Origin: Clostridiales bacterium UBA1777
GTDB taxonomy: Bacteria; Bacillota; Clostridia; Oscillospirales; Oscillospiraceae
NCBI GenBank assembly: GCA_002315275.1
Contig: DCGN01000105.1
Coordinates: 1-43,638, forward strand
DNA: 43,638 nucleotides
Direction of reading: 5' to 3'
A program made the position numbers and the translations under genes. The notes beneath the pieces are model-generated. The model ran no database searches. It was given only the letters and a program-made list of their open reading frames with translations, and had not been told where the DNA came from. This document shows, one piece after another, positions 4,972-38,620 of this stretch; position 1 is the stretch's first letter, and each line of letters begins with the position of its first letter.

Positions 4972-4985
4972 TTTGTGAAGCTCCT

Positions 4986-6668
4986 TTATATTTTCGTCAG
5001 CTCTCCGCAGGCGGACATAAGTGCCTTGAGTATGCCGTCGGCATCGCTTTCGGTTCCGCCGCGGACGGAGAGATACATTTTCAGCTTGGGCTCTGTGCCG
5101 GACGGGCGCACCATGACCTTTGCCTTGCCCTCGAGCGCAAACTCGAGCACGTCGGCAGAGGGAAGGCCGGTGCTGCCGCCTTTATAATCGGCAACGGAGA
5201 TAACGGCTTTTCCCGCGACGGACTTCGGCGGCTCGGTGCGGAGCTTGTCCATCAGCGCCTTCATCGTGCGCATGCCGGCCTCTCCTGGGAAGGAGAACAC
5301 GGCAAGACCGTTTTTGTAAAAGCCGTACTCGGCGTACAGCGCATTGAGCACGTTCAGAAGAGACTTGCCCCGCTTCTTGTAATAGCTTGCCGCCTGGCAG
5401 ACGAGCATAACGGCGTTGACGGCGTCCTTGTCGCGCACATGGCTGCCGGATAGATAGCCGTAGCTCTCCTCAAAGCCGAAGATGAATCTCCCGGCCTCGC
5501 CGCCTTTTTCAAGAAGACCGATCTGATCGCCGATGTACTTGAAGCCGGTAAGCGTGCGGCGAAGCTCAACGCCGTAATGCTCTGCGACGGCATCAGCCAT
5601 GTCGGTGGAAACTATAGTTGTAACCGCAACGGGAGAAGCGGGCATGGTGCCGCTTGCGATGCGCTCCCTGCAGATGAAATCAAGCATAATGAGGCCGAGC
5701 TCGTTGCCGGTGATAAGCTTGTACGAGCCGTCATCCGCGCGAACGGCGATGCCGCATCGGTCGCAGTCGGGGTCGGTGCCGATGAGGAGGTCGGGCTGAA
5801 CCTTATCACACAGCTTGAGACCCTCCATCATGGCCTCTTGTATTTCGGGATTGGGGTACGGACAGGTCGGGAAGCTCCCGTCGGGCTTTTCCTGCGCGGG
5901 AACAACGGTGACATCGGAAACACCGATGCGCTCCAGAAGCATGCGGACGGGCTCAAGGCCGCTTCCGCAAAGAGGGGTGTAGACGAGCTTGAGGTTATCG
6001 CACTTGCCGGTAATAACGCTGTTTTTCAGCACCGCGTCAATAAACTCGCTTAAAACGCTGTCGCTGTTATACTTGACGAGTCCTTTGCCGACAGCCTCAT
6101 CGAGAGCAAGAGTGTGTACGCCGTCAAAGCAGTCGACAGCGCCGATAAAGCGGGTGATGGCATCGGCGGCCTCGTTGGTTATCTGGCAGCCGTCAGGCCC
6201 GTAGACCTTGTAGCCGTTATATGCGGCGGGGTTGTGGCTTGCCGTGATGCATATGCCTGCGCCGCAGCTGAAATATCTCACAGCCCAGGAGAGAGCGGGA
6301 GTCGGCTCAAGGCGGGGATAGATATGAACGCTTATGCCGTTTGCCGCGAGAACGGATGCGGCTTCCGCGGCGAAAACATCGCTCTTGATGCGGCTGTCAT
6401 AAGCTATTGCCGCAGACTTGGGAAGATCGGACGAATTGAGATAGTCTGCAAGGCCCTGAGTTGCCTTGCGTACCATATAGATGTTCATGCGGTTTGTGCC
6501 GACGCCGATAGTGCCGCGAAGGCCGCCCGTACCGAAGGCAAGCTCGCTTGTGAAAGCGTCCTCTATCTCGGTGTCGGAAAGCGTATCGAGCAAAGAGAAA
6601 AGCTCCCTATCGGACACGCGGCTTTTCCATATTTCATATCTGCTTCGAGCGATGTCGTTCATTTTCAT
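4986..6668 (-). CDS. Phospho-sugar mutase (phosphomannomutase / phosphoglucomutase, PgcA-like)
   Basis: 560 aa. Active-site phosphoserine loop TASHNPAAYNGYKVY, Mg loop GTDPDCDR and sugar loop GFEESYG. Confidence 0.88.
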   Translation of the reverse strand: MKMNDIARSRYEIWKSRVSDRELFSLLDTLSDTEIEDAFTSELAFGTGGLRGTIGVGTNRMNIYMVRKATQGLADYLNSSDLPKSAAIAYDSRIKSDVFAAEAASVLAANGISVHIYPRLEPTPALSWAVRYFSCGAGICITASHNPAAYNGYKVYGPDGCQITNEAADAITRFIGAVDCFDGVHTLALDEAVGKGLVKYNSDSVLSEFIDAVLKNSVITGKCDNLKLVYTPLCGSGLEPVRMLLERIGVSDVTVVPAQEKPDGSFPTCPYPNPEIQEAMMEGLKLCDKVQPDLLIGTDPDCDRCGIAVRADDGSYKLITGNELGLIMLDFICRERIASGTMPASPVAVTTIVSTDMADAVAEHYGVELRRTLTGFKYIGDQIGLLEKGGEAGRFIFGFEESYGYLSGSHVRDKDAVNAVMLVCQAASYYKKRGKSLLNVLNALYAEYGFYKNGLAVFSFPGEAGMRTMKALMDKLRTEPPKSVAGKAVISVADYKGGSTGLPSADVLEFALEGKAKVMVRPSGTEPKLKMYLSVRGGTESDADGILKALMSACGELTKI

Positions 6669-6692
6669 AGTACCTCGTTTAAATAAAAGGTA

Positions 6693-6717
6693 GGGCGGCA
6701 GAGCAGCTCTGCCGCCC
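6693..6717 (-). terminator. Intrinsic terminator after the GH130 gene (internal to the minus-strand gene string)
   Basis: GC-rich stem gggcggcaga / tctgccgccc with a 5-nt loop. On the minus strand it is followed by ccttttattt, and the next RBS and ATG lie immediately after. Confidence 0.7.
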
Positions 6718-6743
6718 TTTCAGGCTATATTTTATAATTTTAA

Positions 6744-7664
6744 TTACTGATTTGCAAGGCAAAGCTCAATGAGCTCGTTGATATTGCCGGTTGCGAGGCC
6801 GATATTGGTGTCAGCAGCGCCGTAGTAGATCCGGAGAGTGCCGTCATCCTCGGGGATGGCGTTGCAGGTGAAGACAACGTTGTTGACGCGGCCGCGGTTT
6901 TCGTACTCGTGCTCGGGCCAAAGAATGAAGTCCTTCGTGTAGCCGATGATAACGGAGGGGTCATTGATATCGAGAAGCATTGCCTTGAGGCGGTAGATGA
7001 AGCCGTTGCAGGTGGTGGAAACGGTGTGGTAGATCTCGAGCCAGCCCTTTTCGGTGCGGATGGGAACTGCGCCTGCGCCCATTTTGAAGCCATCCATGAA
7101 TGGCTTGCCGTGGTAGGTGACAGGTCTGCTCTTGCCCCAGAAAATGAGGTCGGGGGAGTAGCTCATCCACATGGAGCAGGGCTCGAGCTCATTGCCGAAG
7201 GGACGGTCGAAGCGGGCGTAAAGACCGTCGATCTTTTCGGGGAACAGAGCGCCGTTGCGGTTGCCGAGCTCGGAAGCGGTGCAGACTCTCTCAAAGCTCT
7301 CAAAATCGCGGGTCTTCATCAGGCCGATGCGGACGTTGTTCTGGGAGAGGTCGCTTGCGTACATGAGGTAATAATCGTCGCCAATCTTGGTGATGCGGGG
7401 ATCGTAGGTGCAGGTCTCGGGATGGTAGGGGTCTACGGGAGGCATCGGCAGGGGCTCGGGATCGGGAACGAAGTGAATGCCGTCATCGCTGCGGGCGATC
7501 CAAAGTCTGTGAATATCATCAAGAGTGGTGGTGTCCATGACGAGGATGTACTTGCCGTTGAACTTGATGGCGCCGGGATTGAAGGTGTAGAGCACCTCCC
7601 GGGGCATCATTGCAGGGGTGACGACGGGGTTGTTTTCATACTTTTCGAGAACGCGCTTTTTCAT
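6744..7664 (-). CDS. GH130 beta-mannoside phosphorylase
   Basis: NPVVTP...FNPGAIKFNGKYIL...YDPRITKIGDDYYLMY...GWLEIYH...NVVF...RIYYGAADT matches the GH130 five-bladed propeller pattern. I place the start at ATG 7664 (MKKRVLEKY) because AGGAGGAA sits 7 nt upstream. The track start at 7712 would overlap the upstream gene. Confidence 0.88.
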   Translation of the reverse strand: MKKRVLEKYENNPVVTPAMMPREVLYTFNPGAIKFNGKYILVMDTTTLDDIHRLWIARSDDGIHFVPDPEPLPMPPVDPYHPETCTYDPRITKIGDDYYLMYASDLSQNNVRIGLMKTRDFESFERVCTASELGNRNGALFPEKIDGLYARFDRPFGNELEPCSMWMSYSPDLIFWGKSRPVTYHGKPFMDGFKMGAGAVPIRTEKGWLEIYHTVSTTCNGFIYRLKAMLLDINDPSVIIGYTKDFILWPEHEYENRGRVNNVVFTCNAIPEDDGTLRIYYGAADTNIGLATGNINELIELCLANQ

Positions 7665-7708
7665 TATTGGTTCCTCCTGAATCTTGCCGAGCATTTCGGC
7701 CGTTTTTA

Positions 7709-8812
7709 TCATAATTTTTCAATTATTTTCTGAGTGATGGGCAGCAGGTCGAGCTTTTTATAAACGGTCTTTGCCTGCAGAACATGCTGAACATAGAAAA
7801 GGGTCATCTCGTGCGCGGGGTCAACTGCCGGGAATGCCCCCGCAGCGCCCTCCCAGCCGAAATCGGTAAGGCCCGTGCCTTCGCGCGGACAGCGGATTCC
7901 GAGACCGTAACCGTAGCCGTATTTGGCCAAGAACGGTGTTGTGGCATAGCAGCTTTCAAGCTGACGGTCGTTGAGCTGATTCGTTGCCATAAGGTCTACA
8001 GTCTCTTTTTTCAGTATGACATCGCCTATGCGGATCGCCTCAAGAAACTTGATGTAATCCTCAACTGTCGTGACACAGCCCGCCCCGCCGCTCTCGTATG
8101 CGTAACCGTGCCGGTGCGGCGCAGTCTTGGGAACGGCAATGAGCCTGTTTTCGGCCTCGTCCCATCTGTAGTGCGCCACTACAGAGTCAAGCTCCTGATC
8201 GGGGAGAGAATATGTGGAGTGAGCCATGCCGAGAGGGTAAAAGATGTTTTTCTTTACATATTCGCCGAGCGTCATGCCAGAGATGACCTCGATGACTGCG
8301 CCTATTATATCATGGCTTAAACCGTAATTAAAGCGATCACCCGGCTCAAATAAAAGCGGCATCTGCGCAAGGTAAGGCATAAGCTCGCGCGTCTGACAGC
8401 GGCCGCCGGTTTCCCTGCGGCATTGATCGATAAGCGGAGAGCGCGTATCGTAGGAATAGCCGGAGGTCATCGTGAGCAGATGGCGGATGGTTATCTGCTT
8501 TTTTGCAGGGATGATCCCATTGTCGGTCTGAACGCTCATGTGCTCGAACTCGGGCAGATAGAGATAGAGCGGATCGTCAAGCTTGAATTCGCCCTTCTCA
8601 TAGAGCTGCATCATCGCGGTGGCGGTGATGTGCTTGGTGCTGGAATATATGTTGTATCGCTCGTTCCCGGTGAGAGGAACGGAGTTTTCGTAATCGGAAC
8701 AGCCTGAGAAATGGCGGTAGACACATTCACCGCGATGATAGACTATACAGTCAAGCGCGGGAATATCGAGCGCACGGAAGCTCTCAAGCTCATTTGTGAG
8801 GCTTTTAAACAT
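7709..8812 (-). CDS. Beta-lactamase-fold serine hydrolase (class C / esterase EstB-like), copy 1
   Basis: 367 aa. SxxK nucleophile motif in YSSTKHITA and a Tyr motif region (YGLSHD). No signal peptide. RBS AAGGAGA. Paralogue of 24865-25968. Confidence 0.8.
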   Translation of the reverse strand: MFKSLTNELESFRALDIPALDCIVYHRGECVYRHFSGCSDYENSVPLTGNERYNIYSSTKHITATAMMQLYEKGEFKLDDPLYLYLPEFEHMSVQTDNGIIPAKKQITIRHLLTMTSGYSYDTRSPLIDQCRRETGGRCQTRELMPYLAQMPLLFEPGDRFNYGLSHDIIGAVIEVISGMTLGEYVKKNIFYPLGMAHSTYSLPDQELDSVVAHYRWDEAENRLIAVPKTAPHRHGYAYESGGAGCVTTVEDYIKFLEAIRIGDVILKKETVDLMATNQLNDRQLESCYATTPFLAKYGYGYGLGIRCPREGTGLTDFGWEGAAGAFPAVDPAHEMTLFYVQHVLQAKTVYKKLDLLPITQKIIEKL

Positions 8813-9553: not shown

Positions 9554-10357
9554 TCATAGCTTGCGGAACTGCGACGGGGTAAGGCCGGTCTGGCGCTTGA
9601 ACACCCTGCAGAAATAGTAAAATGAGGTGAAGCCGCATTCCTCGGCTATCTCGGAGATCGGCTTTCTGCTGTACAGCAGAAGGTCCTTCGCGTGAGAGAT
9701 GCGCACGCTGAGAAGATATTCGAGCGGAGACTGGTGCACTACCTTGCGGAACAGCCTGCGCAGCTGAGATTCGCTTATGCACATCTGCTCGGCGATCTCG
9801 CCGATGTAAAGCTCGGGGTGCATATAGTTTTCGCGGATGTAGGACACAACGCCGTTGACGAACGCTATATCGGAGCGGTATGCGCCGCTGTCGCTTACGC
9901 GAAGGAGCATTCCGAAGAGCTTATATATCTGCGCTCTGCATTCAAGCAGACTGTCAAGCTCAAGGCCGTCCCACAGCGCGATGATATGCTCAAAGGTGCG
10001 GCGTATCTCGGAGCCCTCCGGATGCATTACGAGCGGGAGAGGAAAACCTTCAAGCCCGTTTTCATCCACGGTTTCAAAGTCGATAACGTAAAAGCTGTTC
10101 TTCGCGGAAAGGCTCACGCCTGCATAGCGCAGATCCTTCGGGAACAGAAGCACGTCACCCGCTTTTGTGAGGATAGAACCGGCCTCAAAATCGTAGCGGA
10201 TGCTGCCCTCGACAATGTAGATAAGACCGTTTGCATAGCGCGGCATTATCTCGGGGCGTGACCAGTCCGTCTGCGTGCCGAAGTAGATAGTATGGATGCG
10301 TGAAATTTGTACATCGATGTTCGGATGGCGACCCGAACCGGGAGCGTTTTTGACCAT
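9554..10357 (-). CDS. AraC-family transcriptional regulator (cupin sensor plus HTH)
   Basis: The C-terminal double HTH (ISEIAEECGFTSFYYFCRVFKRQTGLTPSQFR) is classic AraC. The N-terminal half is cupin-like. I prefer the start at ATG 10357 (MVKNAPG) because GGAGGA lies 8 nt upstream. The upstream candidates (TTG 10426, ATG 10411 and 10408) have no RBS and fall inside a promoter-like element. Confidence 0.85.
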   Translation of the reverse strand: MVKNAPGSGRHPNIDVQISRIHTIYFGTQTDWSRPEIMPRYANGLIYIVEGSIRYDFEAGSILTKAGDVLLFPKDLRYAGVSLSAKNSFYVIDFETVDENGLEGFPLPLVMHPEGSEIRRTFEHIIALWDGLELDSLLECRAQIYKLFGMLLRVSDSGAYRSDIAFVNGVVSYIRENYMHPELYIGEIAEQMCISESQLRRLFRKVVHQSPLEYLLSVRISHAKDLLLYSRKPISEIAEECGFTSFYYFCRVFKRQTGLTPSQFRKL

Positions 10358-10406
10358 TACGGCTATCCTCCGCGCATCAGACAATTCTATCGCTGAACTT
10401 TTTTCC

Positions 10407-10435
10407 ATCATAATAAGTTGAAACAATCAAGTCAA
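10407..10435 (-). promoter_or_regulatory. Candidate sigma-A promoter for the AraC gene string
   Basis: On the minus strand: TTGACT (10435-10430), a 17-nt spacer, then TATGAT (10412-10407). Confidence 0.4.
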
Positions 10436-10510
10436 GGAGGAAACGTGATGCTACAAGAAATCACGGCATAAGACAAATTAAAAAATCGCGCAAAAAACGG
10501 CGATATCTAA

Positions 10511-10540
10511 AATGATGCGCGAAAAATACAAATAATGCGC
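10511..10540 (+). promoter_or_regulatory. Direct repeat AATGATGCGC / AATAATGCGC, candidate AraC-type operator
   Basis: Two 10-nt copies (9 of 10 identical) start 20 nt apart at 10511 and 10531, immediately upstream of a weak -35/-10 pair. A related AAAAATCGCGC lies at 10481. Confidence 0.35.
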
Positions 10541-10551
10541 ACAATGTCTAT

Positions 10552-10579
10552 TTACGCAGAGAGCTTTGTTATGTATGCT
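10552..10579 (+). promoter_or_regulatory. Candidate activator-dependent promoter of the GRE operon
   Basis: TTACGC (10552-10557), a 16-nt spacer, then TATGCT (10574-10579). The RBS GAGGTG and ATG 10615 follow. Confidence 0.3.
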
Positions 10580-10614
10580 GATAACATGAGATCTTTGTTT
10601 TGAGGTGACCGCCC

Positions 10615-12822
10615 ATGAAAGGAACCTTTAACGAAAACCGTCCCTTTGTGGAATATGAATATCAGCGCCCGCATTACATCCCCGAAAGCGGCCTTCCCGC
10701 CGATGAGCTGCAGCTCGCGCTGAGAGACTATATAAACGCAAATCCGGATCTGCCGATGCCTATCCTCCGCGCAAAGGCGTTCGATTTTCTGCTTCGGAAC
10801 GTGCAGATCGAGATTAATGAGCATTCGATGTTCTGCGATAAGCTCAACCTCGGCATAGACTATTCAGACTATGCGGGGCAGGACATCTTTGCCAAGGAGA
10901 TGTATCACCGCTTCCACCGCGAGGTTTTGAGCCGTGTGATGCCCGAGGACTTCGCGAGAAGAAATCTCGCCGAGGAGACGGGCGTGTGCACCGCCGATGC
11001 GGACTTCTGGCACACGCTGCCCGAATGGCCGAACCTTCTCAAGCTGGGTATGCCGGGGCTTCTTCAGCGCGCAAAGGATGAAAAGGCAAAGAAGAGCGCC
11101 GCGGGAGAGCTTTCCGAGGAGCAGAAGCTTTTCTACGACTCCGTTATCCTCTCCTATGAGGCCATAATCAGATACATGAACCGGCTCCTCGAAGAGTCAA
11201 AAAAGCACGATGTGCCGGAGTTCACAAGGTGCCTCGGCAATATTATTTCCGCTCCCCCCGCGAACTTCTACGAAGCCATCGAGCTCACGCTCATTTTCAT
11301 GAACGTTGAGGAGATAGGCGTTGAGCGCGCGAGAAGCCTCGGCAGATTTGACGTAAACTACATTGACTTTTATAAAAACGATCTTGCAAACGGCACGTAC
11401 ACTCTCGACGAGATAAAGGATATGCTGCGCTACTTCTATATGCGCCTGCAGGCTGCGAGAAGATATGCCGACCAGCCCTTTGCCATCTGCGGCCTTGACG
11501 AAAACGGCGAGGATGCAACGAACGAGCTTTCGTGGCTCGTGCTCGACGTGTATGACGGCATGGGCATCCACAACCCGAAGATACACGTATGCGTCAGCGA
11601 AAAGACACCGAAGACCATCATAATGCGCATTCTTGACCTTATCCGCCGCGGAAACAGCAGCTTCTGCCTTATCAACGTTGAGACGGCGATAAGGGGCTAT
11701 GAAAAGATAGGCATTTCCCGCGAAGAGGCGCAGGTGTTTGTCCCGTTCGGCTGCTATGAGCCCATTCTCATGGGCAAGGAGGAGCCGATGATAGGCGCGT
11801 CCTGGCTCAACATGGCCAAGGCCGCAGAGCTCGTCATGAACGGCGGCACCGATATGGTCACGGGGGATACTATGTTCTCCTCAACTCCGCTCGACTTTGA
11901 AAGCTATGAGGAATTCGAAAAAGCTTTTTATACGCTCCTCGGCGATATAATCGAGTTTACGAAGGACAACATCCTCAAGCAGGATGAGTACCATATGCTC
12001 ATCAACCCCTCGCCCGTCTATTCCGGCACGCTTACCTCCTGCATGGAAAAGGGCAGGGATATTTTCGACAGAGGCACAAAGTATCACAACACGTCTATCA
12101 AATGCTGCGGCATTGCGACCGTTGTTGACTCGCTCCTTGCTGTGAAGGAGTTCGTTTTCGAGAGAAAGCTCGTCAGCTTTGCCGAGCTGCGCGGGATACT
12201 TCTCAACAACTGGGAGGGAAATGAAAAGCTCCGCCGCATGATACGCCTCAGCAGGAGAAAGTTCGGCAACCATTTCGCCGAGGCCGACAGGCTCGCAAGC
12301 GATGTTTACAAGTTCTGCGCAGAGCTGATAGTGGGCAAGAAGAACACCTCCGGCGGCGTTTTCCGTCTCGGTACGGACACGATCACGAACTGCGTCGTTT
12401 TCGGAAGACGCATGGGACCCACGCCCGACGGCAGATTGACCGCCGAGGCAACGAGCAAGAATTTCTGCGCCTCCAACGGCATGGACAGAAACGGCGTTAC
12501 CGCGCTTGTCGAGTCTGCGACTGCGATGGATGCCACCGACTTTGTCGACGGAGCTGTGCTTGACTTTATCCTGCACCCCTCGGCCGTTCAGGGAGAACGC
12601 GGGCTTGACGCGATGTACAGCATGATAAAGACGTATTTTGATAACGGCGGCTACTCGATCCAGGGCAACGTTATGAACGTTGAGGAGCTTATCGACGCGA
12701 AGGCGCATCCCGAGAAGTATCCGACGCTGCAGGTTCGTGTGTGCGGCTGGAACGAATACTTCGTTGAGCTGTCTCCCGATATGCAGGACGAATTCATCCG
12801 CCAGCTTCAGAGGGTGGAATAA
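10615..12822 (+). CDS. Glycyl-radical enzyme, PFL2 / dehydratase-lyase type, function unknown
   Basis: 735 aa. C-terminal glycyl-radical motif QVRVCGWNEY (Gly711, nt 12745-12747). Thiyl loop FGCYEP (Cys380, nt 11752-11754; Glu382). The Cys-to-Gly spacing is 331 aa. Confidence 0.9.
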   Translation: MKGTFNENRPFVEYEYQRPHYIPESGLPADELQLALRDYINANPDLPMPILRAKAFDFLLRNVQIEINEHSMFCDKLNLGIDYSDYAGQDIFAKEMYHRFHREVLSRVMPEDFARRNLAEETGVCTADADFWHTLPEWPNLLKLGMPGLLQRAKDEKAKKSAAGELSEEQKLFYDSVILSYEAIIRYMNRLLEESKKHDVPEFTRCLGNIISAPPANFYEAIELTLIFMNVEEIGVERARSLGRFDVNYIDFYKNDLANGTYTLDEIKDMLRYFYMRLQAARRYADQPFAICGLDENGEDATNELSWLVLDVYDGMGIHNPKIHVCVSEKTPKTIIMRILDLIRRGNSSFCLINVETAIRGYEKIGISREEAQVFVPFGCYEPILMGKEEPMIGASWLNMAKAAELVMNGGTDMVTGDTMFSSTPLDFESYEEFEKAFYTLLGDIIEFTKDNILKQDEYHMLINPSPVYSGTLTSCMEKGRDIFDRGTKYHNTSIKCCGIATVVDSLLAVKEFVFERKLVSFAELRGILLNNWEGNEKLRRMIRLSRRKFGNHFAEADRLASDVYKFCAELIVGKKNTSGGVFRLGTDTITNCVVFGRRMGPTPDGRLTAEATSKNFCASNGMDRNGVTALVESATAMDATDFVDGAVLDFILHPSAVQGERGLDAMYSMIKTYFDNGGYSIQGNVMNVEELIDAKAHPEKYPTLQVRVCGWNEYFVELSPDMQDEFIRQLQRVE

Positions 12823-13706
12823 TGGGCAGGATCGTCGGAATAAAGCGCTTCGAGATACACGACGGCGACGGGATACGCACTACCGTCTTTCTCAAGGGCT
12901 GCCCCCTTGAGTGCCGCTGGTGCCACAATCCCGAATGCATCAGCCCCAAGCCGCAGCTCGCATTTTTGGAAAAGAAGTGCCTCGACTGCGGAGAATGCAC
13001 AAAGATATGCCCTGCGCACACGATGAAGGACGGGAAGCATGTATATAATCCCGGCCTCTGCACGGCCTGCGGAAAATGCTCACCGATCTGCCTCGGAGAG
13101 GCGCTTCGCTTCTACGGCGAGGAGATATCAGTTGATGACCTTATGCCGAAGCTTTTGGAGGACAGGCCGTTTTTCGAAAGCTCGGGCGGCGGGGTTACCG
13201 TTTCGGGAGGAGAGCCGCTCATGCAGAGCGAATTTGTAAAGGAGATACTCACGAGACTGAAGCGGGAGGGCATCAATACCGCGCTCGACACCTGCGGCTT
13301 CGTACCCAAGGAGACGATGGCATCTGTCATCGGCCTCGCGGACACGTTTCTCCTTGATATAAAGGGCTTCGACGAGAGAAAGCACATTCTCGCCACGGGA
13401 AGACCGAACGGTATTATTCTTGAAAATCTGCGCATGCTGAACGAGCGCGGCGCATCGGTCGAGATACGTATCCCCTTCGTGCCGAAGTATAACGGGGACC
13501 AGATAGACAGCATAGGCAAGATGCTCGGCGAACTAACGTGTATAAAGCGCGTAAAGCTTCTTCCGTACCACGATTTCGGCAACAGCAAGTATTCTCCCAT
13601 CGGCAGAACGCCCGAGGTCATGGAGATCCCCACGGAGGACGAGATACAGACGGCTCTTGCGGAACTGAGAAAATACGGCCTCAATGTCGAGGACGGCAGA
13701 GAATAA
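12822..13706 (+). CDS. Glycyl-radical enzyme activating protein (radical SAM)
   Basis: 294 aa. CX3CX2C motif CPLECRWC (nt 12900-12923). Two ferredoxin-like clusters, CLDCGECTKICP and CTACGKCSPIC. SAM-binding GGEPL. The start overlaps the GRE stop by 1 nt (TAATG). Confidence 0.9.
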   Translation: MGRIVGIKRFEIHDGDGIRTTVFLKGCPLECRWCHNPECISPKPQLAFLEKKCLDCGECTKICPAHTMKDGKHVYNPGLCTACGKCSPICLGEALRFYGEEISVDDLMPKLLEDRPFFESSGGGVTVSGGEPLMQSEFVKEILTRLKREGINTALDTCGFVPKETMASVIGLADTFLLDIKGFDERKHILATGRPNGIILENLRMLNERGASVEIRIPFVPKYNGDQIDSIGKMLGELTCIKRVKLLPYHDFGNSKYSPIGRTPEVMEIPTEDEIQTALAELRKYGLNVEDGRE

Positions 13707-13768
13707 TGGCAATAATCGCTTGATGCCTATATTGAAAAACACAGAGTCGATACAGTCAACTATAATAT

Positions 13769-13798
13769 AACCCGAGGCAGCTTGGTCTGCTTCGGGTT
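13769..13798. terminator. Hairpin terminator between the convergent activase and FAD-oxidoreductase genes
   Basis: Stem aacccgaggcag / ctgcttcgggtt (one G:U pair) with a 6-nt loop and AT-rich flanks on both sides. Confidence 0.6.
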
Positions 13799-13802
13799 AT
13801 AT

Positions 13803-15050
13803 TTATTGCTTTATTGACGCCTTGTAATCTCTGAAATCGTCTATTCCCGGCACTATGGCGCCGGTTTTTGAGAGCTCTTTTCTCAGCTTGTCCGTAGGCA
13901 CATCAGCCATGCTGCCGATACCGTCCCTGACGGCGATGGCGGCGGCGAGGCCGGCGGCCTGACCGAGAGCCATGCAGGTGGCCTTAACGCGAAGCGCGGA
14001 ATTCGTGTCTCTGTCGGTCGAAACGCATCTGCCCGCGGCGAGCACATTGTCAAGCTTCTCCGGAACCATCGCGCTGTAGCGAAGAGCGGGCGTTGCGCCG
14101 CTCGTCAGATATTCTATGCGCGACCCACCCGTATCGAGATGCACGTCCACAAACCAGAACGAATAGCACACCGTGTCATCAAATAAGCGACCTGACTTAT
14201 AGTCCTCTATGGCCATGCAGCTTCTGCCGACTATCCTGCGGCTTTCCCGCGCTCCCGCGGAGGGGGCAATGCCGATTATCTGCGCGGGTGCGTTTGCCCT
14301 GCGAAGCTCCTCCATGCGGTCAAACACCGTGTGCAGAGCCTGAATATCGCCCTTCGTCTTTGCAAAGCTATCGGCGCAGTTATAGCCCGTGATATGGTTG
14401 CGGTTATCGCCGCGGAATTCAACGAGCTCGGATACCTCGGGTGAGGATGGGTCGGAGACGAACGGATAATAACGCATCGTACCGGGCTGAATGCTGCCGT
14501 TTCCGTCACCAACGATAGTTTCCGCGCCTGCGAGGGAGCAGAGAACGGCGTCGGCAGTGCAGTCGATATAAATCTCTGCCGTAAGCTCTGTGAGACCCTG
14601 CGCGGTGGAGATGATTGCGCCTGCCACGCGTCTGCCGTCCGTCTCGACCGATACAAGGCTCTGGTCGAGATAGATGTCAGCGCCCGCTTCGGCAAGCATG
14701 TCCGTCATGCATACGGCGGCCGCAACGGGGTTTACCTTCACGTCATACTGCCAGTGGCAGGTGTACGGCGCGTCCATATCGGGGATCTCGGCGTAACCCA
14801 TCTTCTCAAGGCGGCGGCAGAACTCCCAGCCTATGCCCGCGATTATCATTTTCTTTTCCGTGCGGAACGGATTGTTGAACTGGCTGACGCAGTTGTTGCC
14901 GAGCACCGTCATCACTCCGCCGGGAACGGCGTATTTCTCTATAACGGCAGTGCGCGCGCCGCTTCTTGCCGCCTGAACGGCGGCGCAAAAGCCTGCGCTT
15001 CCGCAGCCGAATACTATTACATCGTAGTGAGCGCCTTTTAGAATGTTCAT
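13803..15050 (-). CDS. FAD-dependent oxidoreductase (FAD_oxidored / pfam12831-like)
   Basis: 415 aa. N-terminal dinucleotide fold YDVIVFGCGSAGFCAAVQAARSGARTAVIEK. No signal peptide. RBS GGGAGG. Confidence 0.8.
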   Translation of the reverse strand: MNILKGAHYDVIVFGCGSAGFCAAVQAARSGARTAVIEKYAVPGGVMTVLGNNCVSQFNNPFRTEKKMIIAGIGWEFCRRLEKMGYAEIPDMDAPYTCHWQYDVKVNPVAAAVCMTDMLAEAGADIYLDQSLVSVETDGRRVAGAIISTAQGLTELTAEIYIDCTADAVLCSLAGAETIVGDGNGSIQPGTMRYYPFVSDPSSPEVSELVEFRGDNRNHITGYNCADSFAKTKGDIQALHTVFDRMEELRRANAPAQIIGIAPSAGARESRRIVGRSCMAIEDYKSGRLFDDTVCYSFWFVDVHLDTGGSRIEYLTSGATPALRYSAMVPEKLDNVLAAGRCVSTDRDTNSALRVKATCMALGQAAGLAAAIAVRDGIGSMADVPTDKLRKELSKTGAIVPGIDDFRDYKASIKQ

Positions 15051-15121
15051 GTCAGCCTCCCTGTGTGAAGCGTTGTCAACTTGCGTGGAATGTACATTGA
15101 CTTTTCAAGGCGGTTTCTTTA

Positions 15122-15151
15122 TTGTTATCCTGCAATTAAGGCGAGTATAAT
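15122..15151 (+). promoter_or_regulatory. Candidate sigma-A promoter of the eda-kdgK operon
   Basis: TTGTTA (15122-15127), an 18-nt spacer, then a perfect TATAAT (15146-15151), 33 nt upstream of ATG 15185. Confidence 0.45.
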
Positions 15152-15184
15152 AGATGAAAGTCAAATTGTAAAGGAGAAATACAG

Positions 15185-16141
15185 ATGGACGCATATAAGA
15201 GAATTGAAGAGATCGGCGTAGTTCCGGTCATTAAGATACCGAGACCCGACATGGCAGAGAAGCTTGCAAAGGCTCTTCTTGAAGGCGGCATTTCCACTAT
15301 CGAGGTCCTTTTCAGAGTTGAATCGGCGGTTGAAAGCCTTAAGAGAATAAAGAAAACATATCCCGATATGCTCGTCGGCGCGGGCACCGTTATGACTGTC
15401 AAACAGATCGACGATGCCATGGCCGCAGGTGCGGATTTCATTGTCAGCCCCGGCTACGATCAGAGGCTCGTTGATTACTGCAACGAAAAGGGCATGCCCA
15501 TCATCCCCGGCTGCTCCAACGCATCGGAGATTCAGGCAGCCTATGTGAGCGGCCTTCGCATAGTGAAGTTCTTCCCCGCGGACGTGCTCGGCGGAGAGAC
15601 AGCTGTCAAGGCATATGCGGGCCCGTTCATCGGCATGCGCTTCATGCTCACCGGCGGCATCACGCTCGACAACCTCGGCAACCTTCTCAAGAATGAAAAG
15701 ATCGTTGCCTGCGGCGGAAGCTTCGTCGCTCCCGCGGCAGAGCTTGCAGCAGAGGATTATGACGCAATAACCGCAAGATGCCGCAAGGCTATCCGTGCCG
15801 GACTCAACTTCGAGCTTGCACATGTCGGCATCAATCTCGGCAGCGCGGAAGAGGCGGAGAAGACTGCGACGCTCATTGCAAGGCTTTTCGATATGCCCGT
15901 TGACAAGCGCACAAAGTGCACCTTCGCAGGCAAGGCCGTCGAGTGCATGAATTATAAGGGCTACGGCGAGAAGGGCCACATCGGCTTCCGCACGAGCAGC
16001 ATGCCGCGCGCTATGGCATGGCTCAGGGGCATGGGCGTTGAGCTCAACGAGGAGAGCTTCCAGTACGATGCAAACGGCAATGTCACCTGTGCATACCTTA
16101 AGGACGAGATCGCAGGCTTTGCGATCCATATAGTAAAGTGA
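15185..16141 (+). CDS. eda: KDPG/KHG aldolase (Eda) fused to a ~110-aa C-terminal VOC/glyoxalase-like domain
   Basis: Residues 1-205 match Eda: IEVLFR with Glu40, Schiff-base Lys128 in RIVKFFPAD, and GGSFVAP. Residues ~208-318 (FELAHVGINLG...GHIGFRT...FAIHIV) are extra relative to the usual ~210-aa enzymes. Confidence 0.85.
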   Translation: MDAYKRIEEIGVVPVIKIPRPDMAEKLAKALLEGGISTIEVLFRVESAVESLKRIKKTYPDMLVGAGTVMTVKQIDDAMAAGADFIVSPGYDQRLVDYCNEKGMPIIPGCSNASEIQAAYVSGLRIVKFFPADVLGGETAVKAYAGPFIGMRFMLTGGITLDNLGNLLKNEKIVACGGSFVAPAAELAAEDYDAITARCRKAIRAGLNFELAHVGINLGSAEEAEKTATLIARLFDMPVDKRTKCTFAGKAVECMNYKGYGEKGHIGFRTSSMPRAMAWLRGMGVELNEESFQYDANGNVTCAYLKDEIAGFAIHIVK

Positions 16142-16151
16142 GGATCATCAA

Positions 16152-17174
16152 ATGAAAAATGTTGTTACATTCGGCGAGCTGATGCTCTCCCTCGAGCCCG
16201 TGGGCTATAAGCGCTTCATTCAGGCAGAGACCTTCGAGGCATTCTATACCGGCGCGGAGGCAAACGTTGCCGCATCGCTTGCACAGTTCGGCATGAAGAC
16301 CCAGTTCATCACCAGACTTCCCGAGAATGCTATCGGCGACGCCGCTATCGCAAACATGCGCAAGTATGGCCTCGGTACAGACTTTATCGTCCGCGGAGGC
16401 GACCGCATCGGCGTCATCTACACCGAGCGCGGCGCATCTCAGCGCGCTTCCACCGTTATATATGACCGCAGGGACAGCGCCATCGCCACTGCCGACGAGG
16501 ATTGCTTCGACTGGGATGCGATCTTTGCCGACGCGGACTGGTTCCACTTCACCGGCATCACTCCCGCACTCAGCCCCAAGGCTGCAAAGCTCTGTCTTGT
16601 CGCGTGCAAGGCCGCAAAGGCTCACGGCGTTAAGATCAGCTGCGACCTCAACTTCAGAAAGAAGCTCTGGACTCCCGAGCAGGCAAAGAAGACCATGAGC
16701 GAGATCCTCGAGTATGTTGACGTTCTCATCGCAAATGAGGAGGACGCGGAGAAGGTGCTCGGCATCAAGGCTGAGAACTCCGACGTTACCAAGGGCGCTC
16801 TCGACCATGCAGGATATACCGAGGTGGCAAAGATTATCAGCGAGAGGTTCAACATCCCCTATGTTGCCACCACGCTCCGCAAGAGCATTTCTGCTTCCGA
16901 TAATGACTGGTCCGCAATGCTCTATCACAGCGGCGAGGTTTTCTTCTCCAAGACATACAGCATCCATATCGTCAACCGCGTCGGCGGCGGCGACTCCTTC
17001 GGCGGCGGCCTTATCTACGCTATGCGCAGCGGCTTTGACGATCAGAAGGCTCTTGAGTTCGCAACCGCGGCATCCTGCCTCAAGCACAGCATCGAGCAGG
17101 ACTTCAACCTCGTATCCGTTTCCGAGGTCACCGCGCTCATGAACGGCGACGGCTCCGGCAGAGTTCAGAGATGA
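16152..17174 (+). CDS. kdgK: 2-dehydro-3-deoxygluconokinase (PfkB family)
   Basis: 340 aa. N-terminus VVTFGELMLSL...YTGAEANVAASLAQFG and the C-terminal GGGDSFGGGLIY anion-hole motif are typical of KdgK. Confidence 0.85.
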   Translation: MKNVVTFGELMLSLEPVGYKRFIQAETFEAFYTGAEANVAASLAQFGMKTQFITRLPENAIGDAAIANMRKYGLGTDFIVRGGDRIGVIYTERGASQRASTVIYDRRDSAIATADEDCFDWDAIFADADWFHFTGITPALSPKAAKLCLVACKAAKAHGVKISCDLNFRKKLWTPEQAKKTMSEILEYVDVLIANEEDAEKVLGIKAENSDVTKGALDHAGYTEVAKIISERFNIPYVATTLRKSISASDNDWSAMLYHSGEVFFSKTYSIHIVNRVGGGDSFGGGLIYAMRSGFDDQKALEFATAASCLKHSIEQDFNLVSVSEVTALMNGDGSGRVQR

Positions 17175-17186
17175 GGAGATAAGCAT

Positions 17187-18044
17187 ATGGACAGCAGATT
17201 GAGAGTTCTCTCAAATGCGCTCTGCGTAGTCGGCGAAGGTCCTATCTGGCTCGCCGAAACGCAGGAGGTAGCCCATACCGATATCCGCGGCAAGCGCATC
17301 AGAAGGATCCATCTGCCGACGGGCAGAGTCCGCGATATAATAGTGCCGCAGATGATCCCCTTTATTTTCGAAGGAGAGGACGGGGCGATCCTCGGCGGCG
17401 GTGAGGACGGCATCTACCGGATAAACGATGACGGAAGCCTCACCCCGATAAACAACACCTATCCCATCAAGGGCGACAGATATAACGACGGCAAGGTCGG
17501 AGTTGACGGCAAGCTCTACATGGGCACGTTCTCGCTCGATGGCACGGCTGCATTTTACCGCATGGAGCATGACGGGTCGATAGTTGAGCTTTTTGACCGC
17601 GTAGGCAACTCAAACGGTCTTGCATGGGATGAAAAAAGGGGTATACTGTATTATAACGATACGCCTACCGGCAGAACGGATGCTTTTGATTTTGACCCTG
17701 TTACGGGTACCGTGTCAAACCGCCGCCCGGTGTTCGCTTACCCCGAAGGCCACCATCCCGACGGAATGACCATCGACTCCGACGGCAACCTTTGGACTGC
17801 ACTTTGGGGCGGCTGGTCCGTCATGTGCATCGACCCCGCTCAGGGCAAAATGATTGAGAAGATCGAGATGCCCACGGCTCAGCCGAGCTGCTGCATCTTC
17901 GCCGGAGACGACCTCGGAGAGCTCATTATCACGAGTGCCGCAACGGGTCTGCCGATCAGACAGCAGCCTCTCGCCGGCGCAACGTTTGCCATTCGCACGG
18001 GAGCAAAGGGCGTTCCCGGCCATAAAATGCGTTTATCGAAGTAA
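17187..18044 (+). CDS. SMP-30 / gluconolactonase / LRE-family lactonase
   Basis: 285 aa. Six-bladed propeller signature GEGPIW...NDGKVGVDGKLYMGT...SNGLAWD...PDGMTIDSDGNLW. Confidence 0.85.
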   Translation: MDSRLRVLSNALCVVGEGPIWLAETQEVAHTDIRGKRIRRIHLPTGRVRDIIVPQMIPFIFEGEDGAILGGGEDGIYRINDDGSLTPINNTYPIKGDRYNDGKVGVDGKLYMGTFSLDGTAAFYRMEHDGSIVELFDRVGNSNGLAWDEKRGILYYNDTPTGRTDAFDFDPVTGTVSNRRPVFAYPEGHHPDGMTIDSDGNLWTALWGGWSVMCIDPAQGKMIEKIEMPTAQPSCCIFAGDDLGELIITSAATGLPIRQQPLAGATFAIRTGAKGVPGHKMRLSK

Positions 18045-18065
18045 TATTCGGAGGAAATAAGAAAA

Positions 18066-18839
18066 ATGAAAACTCAGAGAAGTGTTCTTGTCACGGGCGC
18101 TGTCCGCAATACCGGTCTCGGCATTGCCGAGAAGTTCCTGCAGGAGGGCTGGGCAGTATTTATAACGAGCCGCAGGGAAGAGGATGCGGTCGCAAAGGCA
18201 AAGGAGCTTTCCGAAAAGTACGGTCAGCCCTGCTACGGCATCGGCTTTAACCCGCTCAACGCAAAGGTCGAGGCGGAAGAAGTGTTTGCCAAAATCGCCG
18301 AAAAGGATTATGTTATAGATACCCTCGTGTGTGCCGCGGCAGACCTCGGCATCGGTCAGGATCCTCTCACCATCGACCTTCAGGATTGGGAGAACACCCT
18401 CCTCACCAATATCATGGGCTACTTTGCCCCCGCACGCATCGCCGCGCGCGAGATGGTCAAGGCCGGCAAGGCCAAGACCGGCACGATCGTTTTCATCGGC
18501 TCCATCAACTGCCGCGATTCTCTGCCCCGCCGCAGCGCATACTGCACCTCCAAGGGCGGCATCCGCACGATGACCAAGGCTCTCGCTCTTGACTTCGCAC
18601 CCTACGGCATCCGAGTCAACTGCGTCCTGCCCGGACCCATCTGGACTACCCGCTACGACGCAATGGACCCCGCTGAGGCGGCAAAGCGCGCAAGCCTCGT
18701 TCCCCTCGGAACCGTATCCACTCCCGCACAGATCGCAGGCGGAGTATACTTCTTCGCTACCGACGCATCCGGAAACGCGACCGGGTCCAGCCTCGTTATG
18801 GACGGCGGCATGGACAGCATAGTCGCAGGCGGATATTAA
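18066..18839 (+). CDS. SDR-family oxidoreductase (paralogue of 1-456)
   Basis: 257 aa. Catalytic S...YCTSK and PGPIWT. The cofactor loop reads VTGAVRNTGLG, which is two residues longer than the canonical TGxxxGxG. Confidence 0.85.
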   Translation: MKTQRSVLVTGAVRNTGLGIAEKFLQEGWAVFITSRREEDAVAKAKELSEKYGQPCYGIGFNPLNAKVEAEEVFAKIAEKDYVIDTLVCAAADLGIGQDPLTIDLQDWENTLLTNIMGYFAPARIAAREMVKAGKAKTGTIVFIGSINCRDSLPRRSAYCTSKGGIRTMTKALALDFAPYGIRVNCVLPGPIWTTRYDAMDPAEAAKRASLVPLGTVSTPAQIAGGVYFFATDASGNATGSSLVMDGGMDSIVAGGY

Positions 18840-18857
18840 TTATTAAGGAGATAATCA

Positions 18858-19874
18858 ATGAAGATAGTATTCGGTGCAATAAAGGAATTCAACGACGGCG
18901 TTATGATGATGGCCCGCCAGCTCGGCGCAGAGGGCTTCCACTTCAATACTCCCCCCATCGCGACCGACGATGAGCAGTTCTGGACAGTCGAGGCGCTGAC
19001 ATGGCTCAAGGAGTACACAAAGCGTTTCGATCTCAACCTCGAGATGATCGAGAACGTGCCTATCCGCTTCTACAACAAGATCCTTCTCAACCTGCCCGGC
19101 CGTGACGAGCAGATCGATAACTATATCAAGACCGTTCAGAACATGGGCAAGGTCGGTATTCCCGTTCTCGGCCATCACTTCTGCCCCACATGGGCATGGC
19201 GCACAACGCTCCAGCAGCCCTCCCGCGGAGGCGCAAAGGTCATGGCGTGGGATCACTCAATAGCAGATAAGGTTCCCAATGCCACCCGAGGAAGCTCAAA
19301 CTTCATGGTCAAGTTCGGCGAGGACGTCCCCGTGCCGACGAGACAGGACCTCTGGGATAACTTCACGTACTTCATGAACGCTGTTCTTCCCGAGGCCGAG
19401 AAGGCAGGTGTCCGCCTCGTAACTCATCCATCCGATCCCCCCGTAGACAAGGTCGGCGGTGTAGAGCGCATCTTTATCAGCAAGGAAGACTATCTCAAGG
19501 CCGACGAGATAACCCACAGCGACGCGTGGGGTCTCAACCTCTGCCTCGGCTGCTTCTCACAGCTCGGCGGCGAGGAGTACGTTATGGATATGATCGACGA
19601 GTTCGTTCCCCGCGGAAAGGTCTCCATTGTCCATCTGCGTGACGTTCAGGGCGATATCGAGTGCTTCCAGGAGTGCTTCCTCGGTGACGGCCGCTACAAT
19701 CCCGCAAAGGTGCTCATGAAGCTCAAGCGCTGCGGCTACGAGGGTCTCGTGCTTGATGACCATGTTCCGTTCCTCACGGATGACACCCGCTGGGGCAAGA
19801 CCGCCAGAGCATATCAGACCGGCTATATTCAGGGCATGAAGATGATGCTCGATTATATCGACAGCATAGAGTAA
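18858..19874 (+). CDS. uxuA: Mannonate dehydratase family protein (UxuA-like, xylose-isomerase-like TIM barrel)
   Basis: 338 aa. By eye it is collinear with E. coli UxuA: IENVPI...NYIKTVQNMGKVGIPVLGHHFCP..WAWRTT; VRLVTHPSDPP; IVHLRD; LDDHVP. It is shorter than E. coli UxuA (394 aa). Confidence 0.75.
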   Translation: MKIVFGAIKEFNDGVMMMARQLGAEGFHFNTPPIATDDEQFWTVEALTWLKEYTKRFDLNLEMIENVPIRFYNKILLNLPGRDEQIDNYIKTVQNMGKVGIPVLGHHFCPTWAWRTTLQQPSRGGAKVMAWDHSIADKVPNATRGSSNFMVKFGEDVPVPTRQDLWDNFTYFMNAVLPEAEKAGVRLVTHPSDPPVDKVGGVERIFISKEDYLKADEITHSDAWGLNLCLGCFSQLGGEEYVMDMIDEFVPRGKVSIVHLRDVQGDIECFQECFLGDGRYNPAKVLMKLKRCGYEGLVLDDHVPFLTDDTRWGKTARAYQTGYIQGMKMMLDYIDSIE

Positions 19875-19893
19875 AATAAATATTCCGAGGAGG

Positions 19894-22460: not shown

Positions 22461-22490
22461 TTGTTTTGTGCGGAAAACCGCCTATATAAT
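22461..22490 (+). promoter_or_regulatory. Candidate promoter of the SDR-SDR-AroD-like operon
   Basis: TTGTTT (22461-22466), an 18-nt spacer, then a perfect TATAAT (22485-22490). Confidence 0.4.
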
Positions 22491-22541
22491 TATGATGGTT
22501 TACAGCAGATTATAAAATCAGAACAGAGGAGATATATAATC

Positions 22542-23267: not shown

Positions 23268-23312
23268 TATAAGCGCAAACGCGCTCAACAATATTTTTAC
23301 AGGAGGATTATC

Positions 23313-24847: not shown

Positions 24848-24864
24848 AAACAGGGAGAAGCAAA

Positions 24865-38488: not shown

Positions 38489-38517
38489 GGTGCTGCCCTC
38501 GCTTGCCGTTTTTTATT

Positions 38518-38546
38518 ATAATACCATTCACAAACGGCGATTTCAA
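38518..38546 (-). promoter_or_regulatory. Candidate promoter of the RpiR gene
   Basis: On the minus strand: TTGAAA (38546-38541), a 17-nt spacer, then TATTAT (38523-38518). Confidence 0.4.
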
Positions 38547-38558
38547 TAGCACCGGGGC

Positions 38559-38587
38559 TTGACTTTGAAATTTTGCTGCGATAAAAT
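38559..38587 (+). promoter_or_regulatory. Candidate promoter of the kinase-nanE-murQ-GH42-like operon
   Basis: TTGACT (38559-38564), a 17-nt spacer, then TAAAAT (38582-38587), back to back with the RpiR promoter. Confidence 0.45.
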
Positions 38588-38620
38588 AATTATCATGAAA
38601 TAATGCTACAGGAGGGCAAC

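Follow-up and report, generated by a model that had tools for sequence, protein, structure and literature searches.

A large clade of short glycyl-radical enzymes from uncultured gut Clostridia and its probable link to sugar-related chemistry

Glycyl-radical enzymes (GREs) perform reactions that are otherwise beyond anaerobes, and newly assigned GRE clades have revealed gut-microbial pathways such as choline conversion to trimethylamine, the use of hydroxyproline, the conversion of sulfonates to H2S and "anhydroglycolysis". The sole known sugar-acting GREs are those of the last pathway, YbiW, a 1,5-anhydroglucitol-6-phosphate C-O lyase, and PflD, a 1,5-anhydromannitol-6-phosphate C-O lyase whose substrate is mannose-configured. 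Both isomerases are catalogued with the other characterised pyruvate formate-lyase (PFL)-like GREs in the superfamily review of June 2026, which notes entire clades still without an assigned function. Here we analysed a GRE gene at 10615–12822 (+ strand) of the 43,638-nt contig DCGN01000105.1 (assembly GCA_002315275.1, Clostridiales bacterium UBA1777), the whole of which is called the window hereafter. The gene belongs to a large, sharply bounded and previously unstudied clade, in which nothing described in that review can be recognised. Unassigned clades were already known to exist and sugar-acting GREs have a precedent; what is new is the placement of this clade. On balance we favour the view that the window GRE is a new eliminase/isomerase-type enzyme working on a glycan-derived substrate, and that the segment 9554–13706 is a self-contained, sugar-inducible cassette.

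The enzyme, its residues and its clade

The window GRE is encoded by an intact open reading frame (ORF) of 735 amino acids, with both domains scoring far above cut-off in Pfam (PFL-like, PF02901, 7.8e-97, 326 bits; Gly_radical, PF01228, 9.8e-23, 81 bits). Direct reading and Pfam bear out the original prediction as to its two radical sites: the thiyl-radical Cys380 (tgc, 11752–11754) lies inside Gly-Cys-Tyr-Glu-Pro and the glycyl-radical Gly711 (ggc, 12745–12747) inside Gln-Val-Arg-Val-Cys-Gly-Trp-Asn, at a spacing of 331 residues. The Cys loop, G379-C380-Y381-E382-P383 (11749–11763, +), supplies the thiyl Cys and a predicted catalytic-base Glu, and the glycyl-radical loop, R708-V-C-G711-W-N713 (12736–12753, +), gives the "RVCGWN" clade its name. 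From 45 clade sequences, AlphaFold2 yields a confident full GRE fold (predicted local distance difference test score, pLDDT, 94.4; predicted template-modelling score, pTM, 0.92). With the barrel, the RVxG[FWY] fingerprint, the Cys-loop Cys and a dedicated activase, the protein is a member of the PFL-like GRE superfamily. Its single Cys within a Cys-x-Glu motif (C380-Y-E382) instead of Cys-Cys, together with a His at the position of His164 of glycerol dehydratase (GD), assigns it to the eliminase/isomerase class, the dehydratase/lyase branch that had been proposed for it. The protein had also been called unusually short for that branch. At 735 residues it is indeed below all characterised members, yet the branch minimum is about 765 (E. 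coli PflD) or 776 (PFL2) and not the 790 assumed; some 31 residues are missing at the N-terminus and several loops carry short deletions, which accounts for the shortness.

A protein search returned 78 clusters of 708–760 aa (423–1707 bits) that are 34–100% identical to the window GRE, followed by a sharp gap, the first match outside the clade being a 788-aa protein with 265 bits and 29% identity. The other full-length clade members (P0002–P0078) share 34–72% identity with the window GRE, and the median clade length is 734 aa. Scanning GTDB species-representative genomes with the peptide pattern LQ[VI]R[VL]CGWN gave at least 594 matches, of which the top one is just 50% identical. The best 80 of these come nearly all from metagenome-assembled genomes (MAGs) of uncultured Clostridia from sheep, goat, deer, buffalo, chicken, rabbit and human guts; they are mainly Oscillospiraceae, Ruminococcaceae, Acutalibacteraceae and Christensenellaceae, with a few Prolixibacteraceae, Armatimonadota, Lentisphaerae, Planctomycetota and Bacilli. 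No cultured carrier is among these 80. The description of the gene as an "orphan" was therefore misleading, because it belongs to a large family in which some copies are tandem duplicates: two or more clade GREs occur at 8 of 87 loci, tandem duplicates among them, and several MAGs have more than one locus.

The clade signature reads D130-x-x-H133, R238-x-R240, P-K322, GCYEP, S-K/R-N616, L-D650 and RVCGWN, and the window GRE carries every one of these motifs. In an alignment of 45 clade sequences, G379, C380 and E382 are invariant (45/45) and Tyr381 is found in 44, while R708, C710, G711, W712 and N713 do not vary at all. D130 and H133 (D130-F-W-H133, 11002–11013, +) are likewise present in 45/45, D130 being specific to the clade where other GREs have G-x-G-H. 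In the R238-A-R240 motif (11326–11334, +), R240 is invariant and R238 is shared by 39 of the 45. P321 and K322 (11575–11580, +) are invariant, and this Lys is clade-specific, other GREs having Q-P-N/S here. Ser614 is kept in 44/45, position 615 is Lys or Arg, and N616 and D650 are invariant. D130, R240, K322, N616 and D650 are all absent from YbiW, PflD and generic GREs. These invariant Asp, Arg, Lys and Asn residues, together with the aromatic F/Y131, W132 and Y381, may form a sugar-type binding site. Subclade-specific residues occupy positions 132, 238/239, 386, 392, 394 and 588 (for example, Trp132 versus Gly/Ser/Asp and Asp588 versus Phe/Tyr/His), as would be expected of a conserved reaction with diversified substrates.

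Equivalent residues in the GD structure 1R8W were counted residue by residue in a hidden Markov model (HMM) alignment. Cys380 falls on GD Cys433, HypD Cys434 and the Cys loop of PFL2. His133 falls on GD His164, which we take to be the general acid of that enzyme, and on the His of YbiW and PflD. Position 238 corresponds to GD His281 and HypD Asp278, which presumably contact the substrate. In the GD pocket, which we assume to comprise Ser282, Tyr339, Asp447 and Tyr640, Ser282 is replaced by Ala, Asp447 by Gly394 and Tyr640 by Asp588, and the loop with Tyr339 is deleted. These losses, and a predicted pocket rich in Arg, Lys and Asp that would be unlike that of small-diol enzymes, weigh against a very divergent analogue of glycerol or 1,2-diol dehydratases, which would take glycerol from glycosylglycerols or lipids, or propanediol from rhamnose or fucose. 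The window GRE has the CxE motif and the general-acid His in common with GD and propanediol dehydratase (PD), and the neighbourhood repeatedly includes GDSL/SGNH esterases, rhamnosidases and Zn-alcohol dehydrogenases; yet the loci examined showed neither a microcompartment nor a partner of the aldehyde dehydrogenase or 1,3-propanediol dehydrogenase kind, and we regard this option as very improbable.

No characterised GRE group accommodates the window GRE, as had been proposed. Its NCBIfam equivalog scores (105–303 bits) are far below the cut-offs (994–1150): HypD (NF043068) 303 against 1100, HpfG (NF048009) 280 against 1000, HpsG (NF048011) 249 against 1000, CutC (TIGR04394) 226 against 1050, indoleacetate decarboxylase 193 against 1100, HPAD 189 against 1150 and PFL (TIGR01255) 105 against 994. 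The generic PFL2-3 subfamily model (TIGR01774) gives 326 bits for a cut-off of 678, which together with the altered pocket positions and the lack of a gene for the microcompartment shell protein BMC-H separates the window GRE from GD and PD. HypD is set apart also by Arg238 at its Asp278 position, and CutC by a His in place of Asp at the His164 position and by its shell genes, which have no counterpart here. Sulfonate GREs (IslA/IseG, HpsG, HpfG) presumably bind the sulfonate through an Arg/Gln/Arg triad that includes IslA Arg678. The window GRE has Asp588 at that position, as placed by GD numbering, and the window holds neither a sulfite reductase nor a sulfonate transporter gene. By sequence the best solved structure is again HypD (253 bits), identities to structures in the PDB being 21–25%. 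Foldseek with the AlphaFold2 model gave template-modelling (TM) scores of 0.82–0.88 at about 20–25% identity across all eliminases and isomerases (HpzG, PD, GD, HypD, PFL2, CutC, PflD, HplG, YbiW, IseG, HpsG and IslA). Placement within a known isofunctional group, which would have overturned the original prediction, was thus rejected by NCBIfam, PDB sequence, PDB profile and Foldseek alike: the window GRE is equidistant from every eliminase and isomerase and has no single nearest relative. Full-text literature searches likewise brought up no relevant GRE linked to sugar, sugar-acid, mannan or AraC contexts or to the motifs RVCGW, VCGWN or GCYEP, and papers on glycoside hydrolase (GH) family GH130 cite GREs solely for sequence similarity network methodology.

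Generic pipelines name clade proteins "formate C-acetyltransferase", the label that an ordinary, mis-sized pyruvate or 2-ketobutyrate formate-lyase would deserve. The single Cys followed by an invariant Glu in place of Cys-Cys, the PFL equivalog score given above, and the fact that PFL structures match the window GRE by sequence only over its C-terminal 180 residues leave this reading with practically no credibility.

A regulated cassette and its possible substrates

The GRE gene is translationally coupled to the gene of a radical S-adenosylmethionine (SAM) GRE-activating enzyme of 294 aa (12822–13706, +). At the junction gaa-TAATG-ggc the GRE stop and the activase ATG share base 12822, a 1-nt overlap that the original prediction had described correctly. 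The activase scores 318 bits on the GRE-activase model TIGR02494 (cut-off 174), matches Radical_SAM, Fer4_12 and Fer4 in Pfam, and carries C27x3C31x2C34 (nt 12900–12923) plus two CxxCxxCxxxC ferredoxin-type clusters. Upstream and divergent lies an AraC-family regulator gene (9554–10426, −) with a C-terminal HTH_18/HTH_AraC domain (HTH_18, 3.2e-25) and a weak N-terminal cupin match to AraC_binding (1.2e-3, residues 1–185). The 188 nt between the two genes (10427–10614) are predicted from the sequence to be a divergent control region, with promoter-like hexamers for the AraC side at 10435–10407 and a GAGGTG ribosome-binding site 7 nt upstream of the GRE ATG. Beyond the activase, pattern matching found a hairpin at 13764–13803 with an unusually long, perfect-looking 17-bp stem and flanking T-runs; it is probably a bidirectional terminator that ends both the GRE-activase operon and the convergent gene of a flavin adenine dinucleotide (FAD)-dependent oxidoreductase.

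The context of the cassette is conserved among relatives. The comparison drew on 14 loci for which genes were called and on 79 GTDB loci whose annotation came from seed searches and Pfam, and the context counts cover about 87 loci; the L labels below denote loci of relatives carrying clade GREs, and identities refer to the window GRE. Of the 84 clade GREs with sufficient upstream sequence, 57 have, as in the window, a divergent AraC gene no more than 500 bp upstream, and an activase gene lies downstream of 53 of 96. Among 146 genes co-directional with clade GREs, the predominant families are SGNH/GDSL and SASA carbohydrate esterases (about 16), GH2, GH43, GH106, apiosidase-like proteins, large surface proteins of a GH43-like type, EamA and ABC sugar transporters, Zn-dependent alcohol dehydrogenases (Zn-ADH), short-chain dehydrogenases/reductases (SDR) and SMP-30 lactonases. 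In agreement with the original prediction, the usual GRE companions are missing from the window, which has no microcompartment shell, aldehyde dehydrogenase, sulfite-handling or amine-handling gene. A tblastn search of 1.6 Mb of clade loci with a PduA query found no BMC-H shell gene, and in the loci examined the orthologues showed no link to the choline, propanediol or isethionate pathways or to microcompartments, any of which would have contradicted that prediction.

The closest orthologues narrow this glycan-utilisation context further. L094 (80% identity) has permeases, GRE, activase, lactonase, histidine kinase (HK), response regulator (RR) and solute-binding protein (SBP) genes and, further on, a GH2 beta-mannosidase with a mannosidase Ig domain. 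L091 (66%) runs AraC, GRE, activase, HK, RR, SBP, permeases, GDSL esterase, GH130 and phosphomannose isomerase (PMI), and L093 (61%) has SBP, permeases, GRE, activase, GH38, GH130 and GH172 in a single directon. L001 (59%) is arranged as AraC, GRE, activase, Eda, PfkB, lactonase, SDR, UxuA-like dehydratase, HK, RR and SBP. In the window itself, PMI, phosphomanno/glucomutase and GH130 mannoside phosphorylase genes occupy 4039–7712 (−), GH130 being at 6744–7712 (−). Taken with the neighbours of the closest orthologues, they indicate that this orthologue group is embedded in mannoside-utilisation loci.

A non-carbohydrate substrate (an amino-acid derivative, an osmolyte or a xenobiotic alcohol), processed by an independent module that landed in accessory regions rich in carbohydrate-active enzymes, would suit a cassette with its own regulator and predicted terminator, and many loci do consist of AraC, GRE and activase only, beside housekeeping genes (SpoIVB, ABC exporters, MarR). 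In several operons, however, the GRE and activase genes are flanked by ABC sugar permeases on one side and glycosidases on the other, or come directly before GH2, GH43, esterase or lactonase genes, and the AraC-type regulator has a weak match to a sugar-sensor-like cupin, so that we find such a substrate rather unlikely.

Besides AraC and the activase, the lactonase is a recurring partner in four subclades. In the window this SMP-30/gluconolactonase-family gene lies at 17187–18044 (+; Pfam SGL, 1.6e-62); elsewhere it comes immediately after the GRE in L008, L052 and L065, immediately after the activase in L094, and lies nearby in L001 and L016. Lactonase and GRE identities run in parallel (67/80, 56/58, 38/48 and 31/33%). 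In the window the lactonase gene is part of a block with genes for a KDPG aldolase (KDPG, 2-keto-3-deoxy-6-phosphogluconate), Eda (15185–16141, +), a PfkB kinase (16152–17174, +), an SDR (18066–18839, +) and a UxuA-like dehydratase (18858–19874, +). With 556 bits, this PfkB aligns to the kinase portion of the "KHG/KDPG aldolase/sugar kinase fusion" model, which makes it a kinase of the 2-keto-3-deoxygluconate (KDG) type. By its gene content the block (15185–19874) is a complete oxidative module from aldohexose via KDG to pyruvate and glyceraldehyde 3-phosphate, with no part left for the GRE. The Eda operon has promoter-like sites of its own at 15097–15151; between it and the GRE-activase operon stand the terminator-like hairpin and the convergent oxidoreductase gene.

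These neighbours raise the possibility that the GRE draws its substrate, an aldonate or aldonolactone, from the oxidative pathway next to it; a hexonate or its lactone, for instance, might be dehydrated to a keto-deoxy acid for the KDG kinase and KDPG aldolase. The lactonases next to the GREs, the parallel divergence of the two proteins, and the block after the cassette in both the window and L001 speak for it, and the invariant basic residues would suit a carboxylate. Against it, the pathway from SDR to KDPG aldolase is already complete, alpha-proton chemistry on aldonates requires no radical enzyme, the hairpin stands between the two window operons, and the whole block is missing at L091 and L093. 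It is found near a clade GRE only in the window and in the one 59% relative (L001/L002), and Eda, KdgK and UxuA were accordingly rejected as conserved partners; they form an adjacent module instead. We judge this option unlikely. The original prediction had named the AraC regulator, FAD oxidoreductase, KdgK, Eda, lactonase, UxuA-like dehydratase and GH130 as neighbours, all of which Pfam and NCBIfam support, and had reasoned from them to a polyol, anhydro- or deoxy-sugar, or sugar acid. The broader carbohydrate link is strengthened, with a mannoside setting for the closest orthologues; the sugar-acid part is weakened because the SDR, lactonase, UxuA-like, KDG kinase and KDPG aldolase pathway is complete without the GRE.

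The mannose-related context of the window and its closest orthologues also calls to mind the two known sugar-acting GREs. A non-PTS version of YbiW/PflD (PTS, phosphotransferase system) would be a ring-opening C-O lyase on 1,5-anhydro-D-mannitol, 1,5-anhydro-D-glucitol or their 6-phosphates, and its product, 1-deoxyfructose or its 6-phosphate, would be processed by a nearby kinase and aldolase. PflD's mannose-configured substrate fits this context, PfkB kinase and aldolase genes occur near clade GREs in the window, L001, L007, L008 and L010, and the invariant Arg and Lys could bind a phosphate. Nevertheless, YbiW and PflD are no closer to the window GRE than other eliminases and lack the clade-specific residues, the kinase is missing at most loci, and in the window the partner of PfkB, itself a KDG kinase, is an aldolase of the KDPG type, as in the known fusion, and not of the FSA type. 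All in all, such an enzyme seems unlikely.

The reading we prefer is that the clade probably performs a sugar-related reaction of a kind not described before. From its homology with GRE 1,2-eliminases and isomerases, the following mechanism can be proposed. The activase would install the radical on Gly711, from which it would pass to Cys380; the Cys380 thiyl would abstract a hydrogen from a substrate carbon that bears a hydroxyl; Glu382 would deprotonate this hydroxyl to give a ketyl radical; His133 would protonate the neighbouring oxygen leaving group (a hydroxyl, ring or ether oxygen), which would depart; and the product radical would regain a hydrogen from Cys380. The net result would be a redox-neutral C-O cleavage, either a dehydration or a ring or ether opening, yielding a deoxy-carbonyl compound. 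The substrate would most likely be a small carbohydrate-derived molecule from imported oligosaccharides, mannosides in the case of the window's orthologue group, and in part of the clade the pathway may include a sugar lactone or aldonate handled by the co-inherited SMP-30 lactonase.

Perhaps the radical C-O cleavage takes place directly on a glycan-derived monosaccharide, as in a C1/C2 dehydration of an aldose to a 2-deoxy-aldono-1,5-lactone. The thiyl would then abstract the anomeric C1-H of an aldopyranose (D-mannose or D-glucose here, other sugars in paralogues), Glu382 would deprotonate O1 and His133 would protonate the departing 2-OH; the SMP-30 lactonase would open the resulting lactone. 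This would be diol-dehydratase chemistry on a hemiacetal. It would explain the GRE-lactonase pairs that have no dehydrogenase (L008, L052, L065, L094), the invariant polar core beside variable specificity positions, and the association of different glycosidase families with different subclades. If this is true, a redox-neutral radical entry into sugar catabolism lies beside glycosidases and esterases in uncultured gut Clostridia; as a specific proposal we hold it to be speculative and unlikely.

Several points count against a sugar-acting cassette. Many loci have only AraC, GRE and activase with uninformative neighbours, so that the carbohydrate link rests on a subset of the loci. Kinases are rare near clade members, and a phosphorylated substrate is neither supported nor excluded. 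The synteny of orthologues 59–80% identical could come partly from shared descent rather than from function. The pattern matches predict that the window GRE operon is transcribed separately from the sugar-acid operon, whose pathway needs no GRE. R238, R240, K322, N616 and D650 are placed as lining the pocket by alignment, and the chemistry and the substrate class are likewise deduced.

Other modules in the window and at related loci

The gene of the FAD-dependent oxidoreductase (PF12831, 415 aa; 13803–15050, −) sits between the GRE and Eda operons and is absent at the syntenic L001. The original prediction listed it among the neighbours, and it was rejected as a conserved partner: PF12831-like genes occur at three other loci and are about 22% identical to each other and to that of the window. 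The KDPG aldolases of the window (15185–16141) and of L001 (13268–14230), of 318–320 aa, are composed of an aldolase domain (residues 1–204) and a C-terminal extension of about 115 aa with a faint Glyoxalase/VOC-type match (E 0.009).

SDR, Zn-ADH or GFO dehydrogenases recur near clade GREs together with a divergent type-I-dehydroquinase-like gene (window 22461–25968, L028, L034, L044, L086 and L089). In the window, the dehydroquinase-like gene (24062–24847) has no NCBIfam match and is followed by a beta-lactamase-fold gene. The module may represent an unrecognised pathway for keto-sugar or cyclitol dehydration. Beta-lactamase-fold (PF00144) proteins are encoded in the carbohydrate loci of the window at 7709–8812 (−) and 24844–25968 (+), and they may be esterases rather than penicillin-binding proteins. 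Further along, a 992-aa protein (32111–35089) has a weak GH42 match only, and 37643–43184 is an amino-sugar module with RpiR, a BadF-type (GlcNAc-kinase-like) ATPase, NanE (ManNAc-6-phosphate epimerase), a MurQ/GKRP-SIS-like protein and a GH42 beta-galactosidase.

At L003, on a 365-kb contig, three paralogous clade GREs (about 725–745 aa), each with a divergent AraC gene, lie within 11 kb (10001–21398); two EamA transporter genes are also present. The 22-kb stretch examined there holds a single activase gene, so one activase may serve several GREs. In the subclade marked by DVWH, RCR, R392 and C394 (L019, L021, L023, L029, L030, L033, L036 and L044; e.g. L023:12226–16350), the gene directly downstream on the same strand often encodes a secreted protein of about 1370 aa with a GH43-like region and C-terminal Cu_amine_oxidN1 cell-surface domains. 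The genes of a radical enzyme inside the cell and of a glycosidase-like protein outside it thus share an orientation. L008, a 34% relative, has next to its GRE genes for GH2-like, lyxose/mannose-isomerase-like, PfkB and class II aldolase proteins. An analogy of its cupin, PfkB and class II aldolase trio with IolB-C-J and 5-deoxyglucuronate was rejected, since terminal-diol dehydration of gluconate would give a 2-deoxy-uronate and not a 5-deoxy-uronate, and it is weakened also by the cupin being lyxose/mannose-isomerase-like.

Other GRE-like ORFs of 706–767 aa accompany clade members at L013:309–2492, L015:5855–8038, L054:547–2733, L039:16718–18838 (−), L041:5955–8204, L047:882–3071 (−) and L069:5970–8273. 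They are mostly 22–25% identical to the window GRE, that of L069 reaching 33%. Their glycyl-radical loops read RV[GST]GF in L013, L015, L054, L039 and L041, RLWGV in L047 and RVTGW in L069, and three lack the Glu of CxE (GCWD, LCQD and GCFS). The radical Gly is retained in all of them, for which reason they were rejected as aminoacyl-radical enzymes; they may represent further unassigned GRE clades whose chemistry differs.

Significance and comparison with described enzymes

The clade is of note as a large group almost confined to uncultured gut Clostridia of ruminants, humans and poultry, with an active-site signature of its own and a place in polysaccharide-utilisation loci. Once its substrate is identified, models of fibre or mannan fermentation would probably gain a new radical step, and hundreds of genes now called "formate C-acetyltransferase" or "hypothetical" would receive a functional label. 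The window offers a complete set for heterologous tests, with regulator, enzyme, activase and candidate pathway partners.

Among described systems, PFL2 of Archaeoglobus fulgidus (2F3O) is a compact eliminase-like GRE of debated function which, with 434 bits on the clade profile, is near the best matches. It differs from the window GRE in being archaeal, in having Q-A-I at R-x-R and RVAGW rather than RVCGW, and in its gene context.

YbiW and PflD have in common with the window GRE the CxE motif, the aligned His and a gene context with sugar transport and an aldolase, at 21–23% identity in Foldseek and 164–206 bits in phmmer. Where they and generic long GREs have G-x-G-H, S-x-S, Q-P-N, E/D-G-x-S-P, L-L-N and RVAGY, the clade counterparts are D-F-W-H, R-x-R, N-P-K, S-K-N, L-D-F and RVCGWN. 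The E. coli ybiW and pflD loci hold a PTS and the aldolase genes fsaA and fsaB, neither of which is present at the window GRE; clade loci instead combine glycosidases, esterases and a lactonase with ABC or EamA transporters.

With the GRE 1,2-eliminases (GD, 1R8W; PD, 5I2A; HypD/HpyG/HpzG, 6VXC/8ID1/8IOF; and CutC), the window GRE shares a ten-stranded barrel (TM 0.84–0.88), the Gly loop, the Cys-x-Glu Cys loop, the Cys-to-Gly spacing, the general-acid His and a translationally coupled activase with two auxiliary ferredoxin clusters. It is, in contrast, 50–110 residues shorter and 21–25% identical to them, and its substrate-contact positions are swapped (R238/A239/R240, G394 and D588). Unlike these eliminases, it has invariants of its own in D130, K322, N616, D650, C710, W712 and N713, and, in place of a microcompartment or aldehyde-handling partner, it is accompanied by glycan-utilisation genes at loci under an AraC-type regulator.

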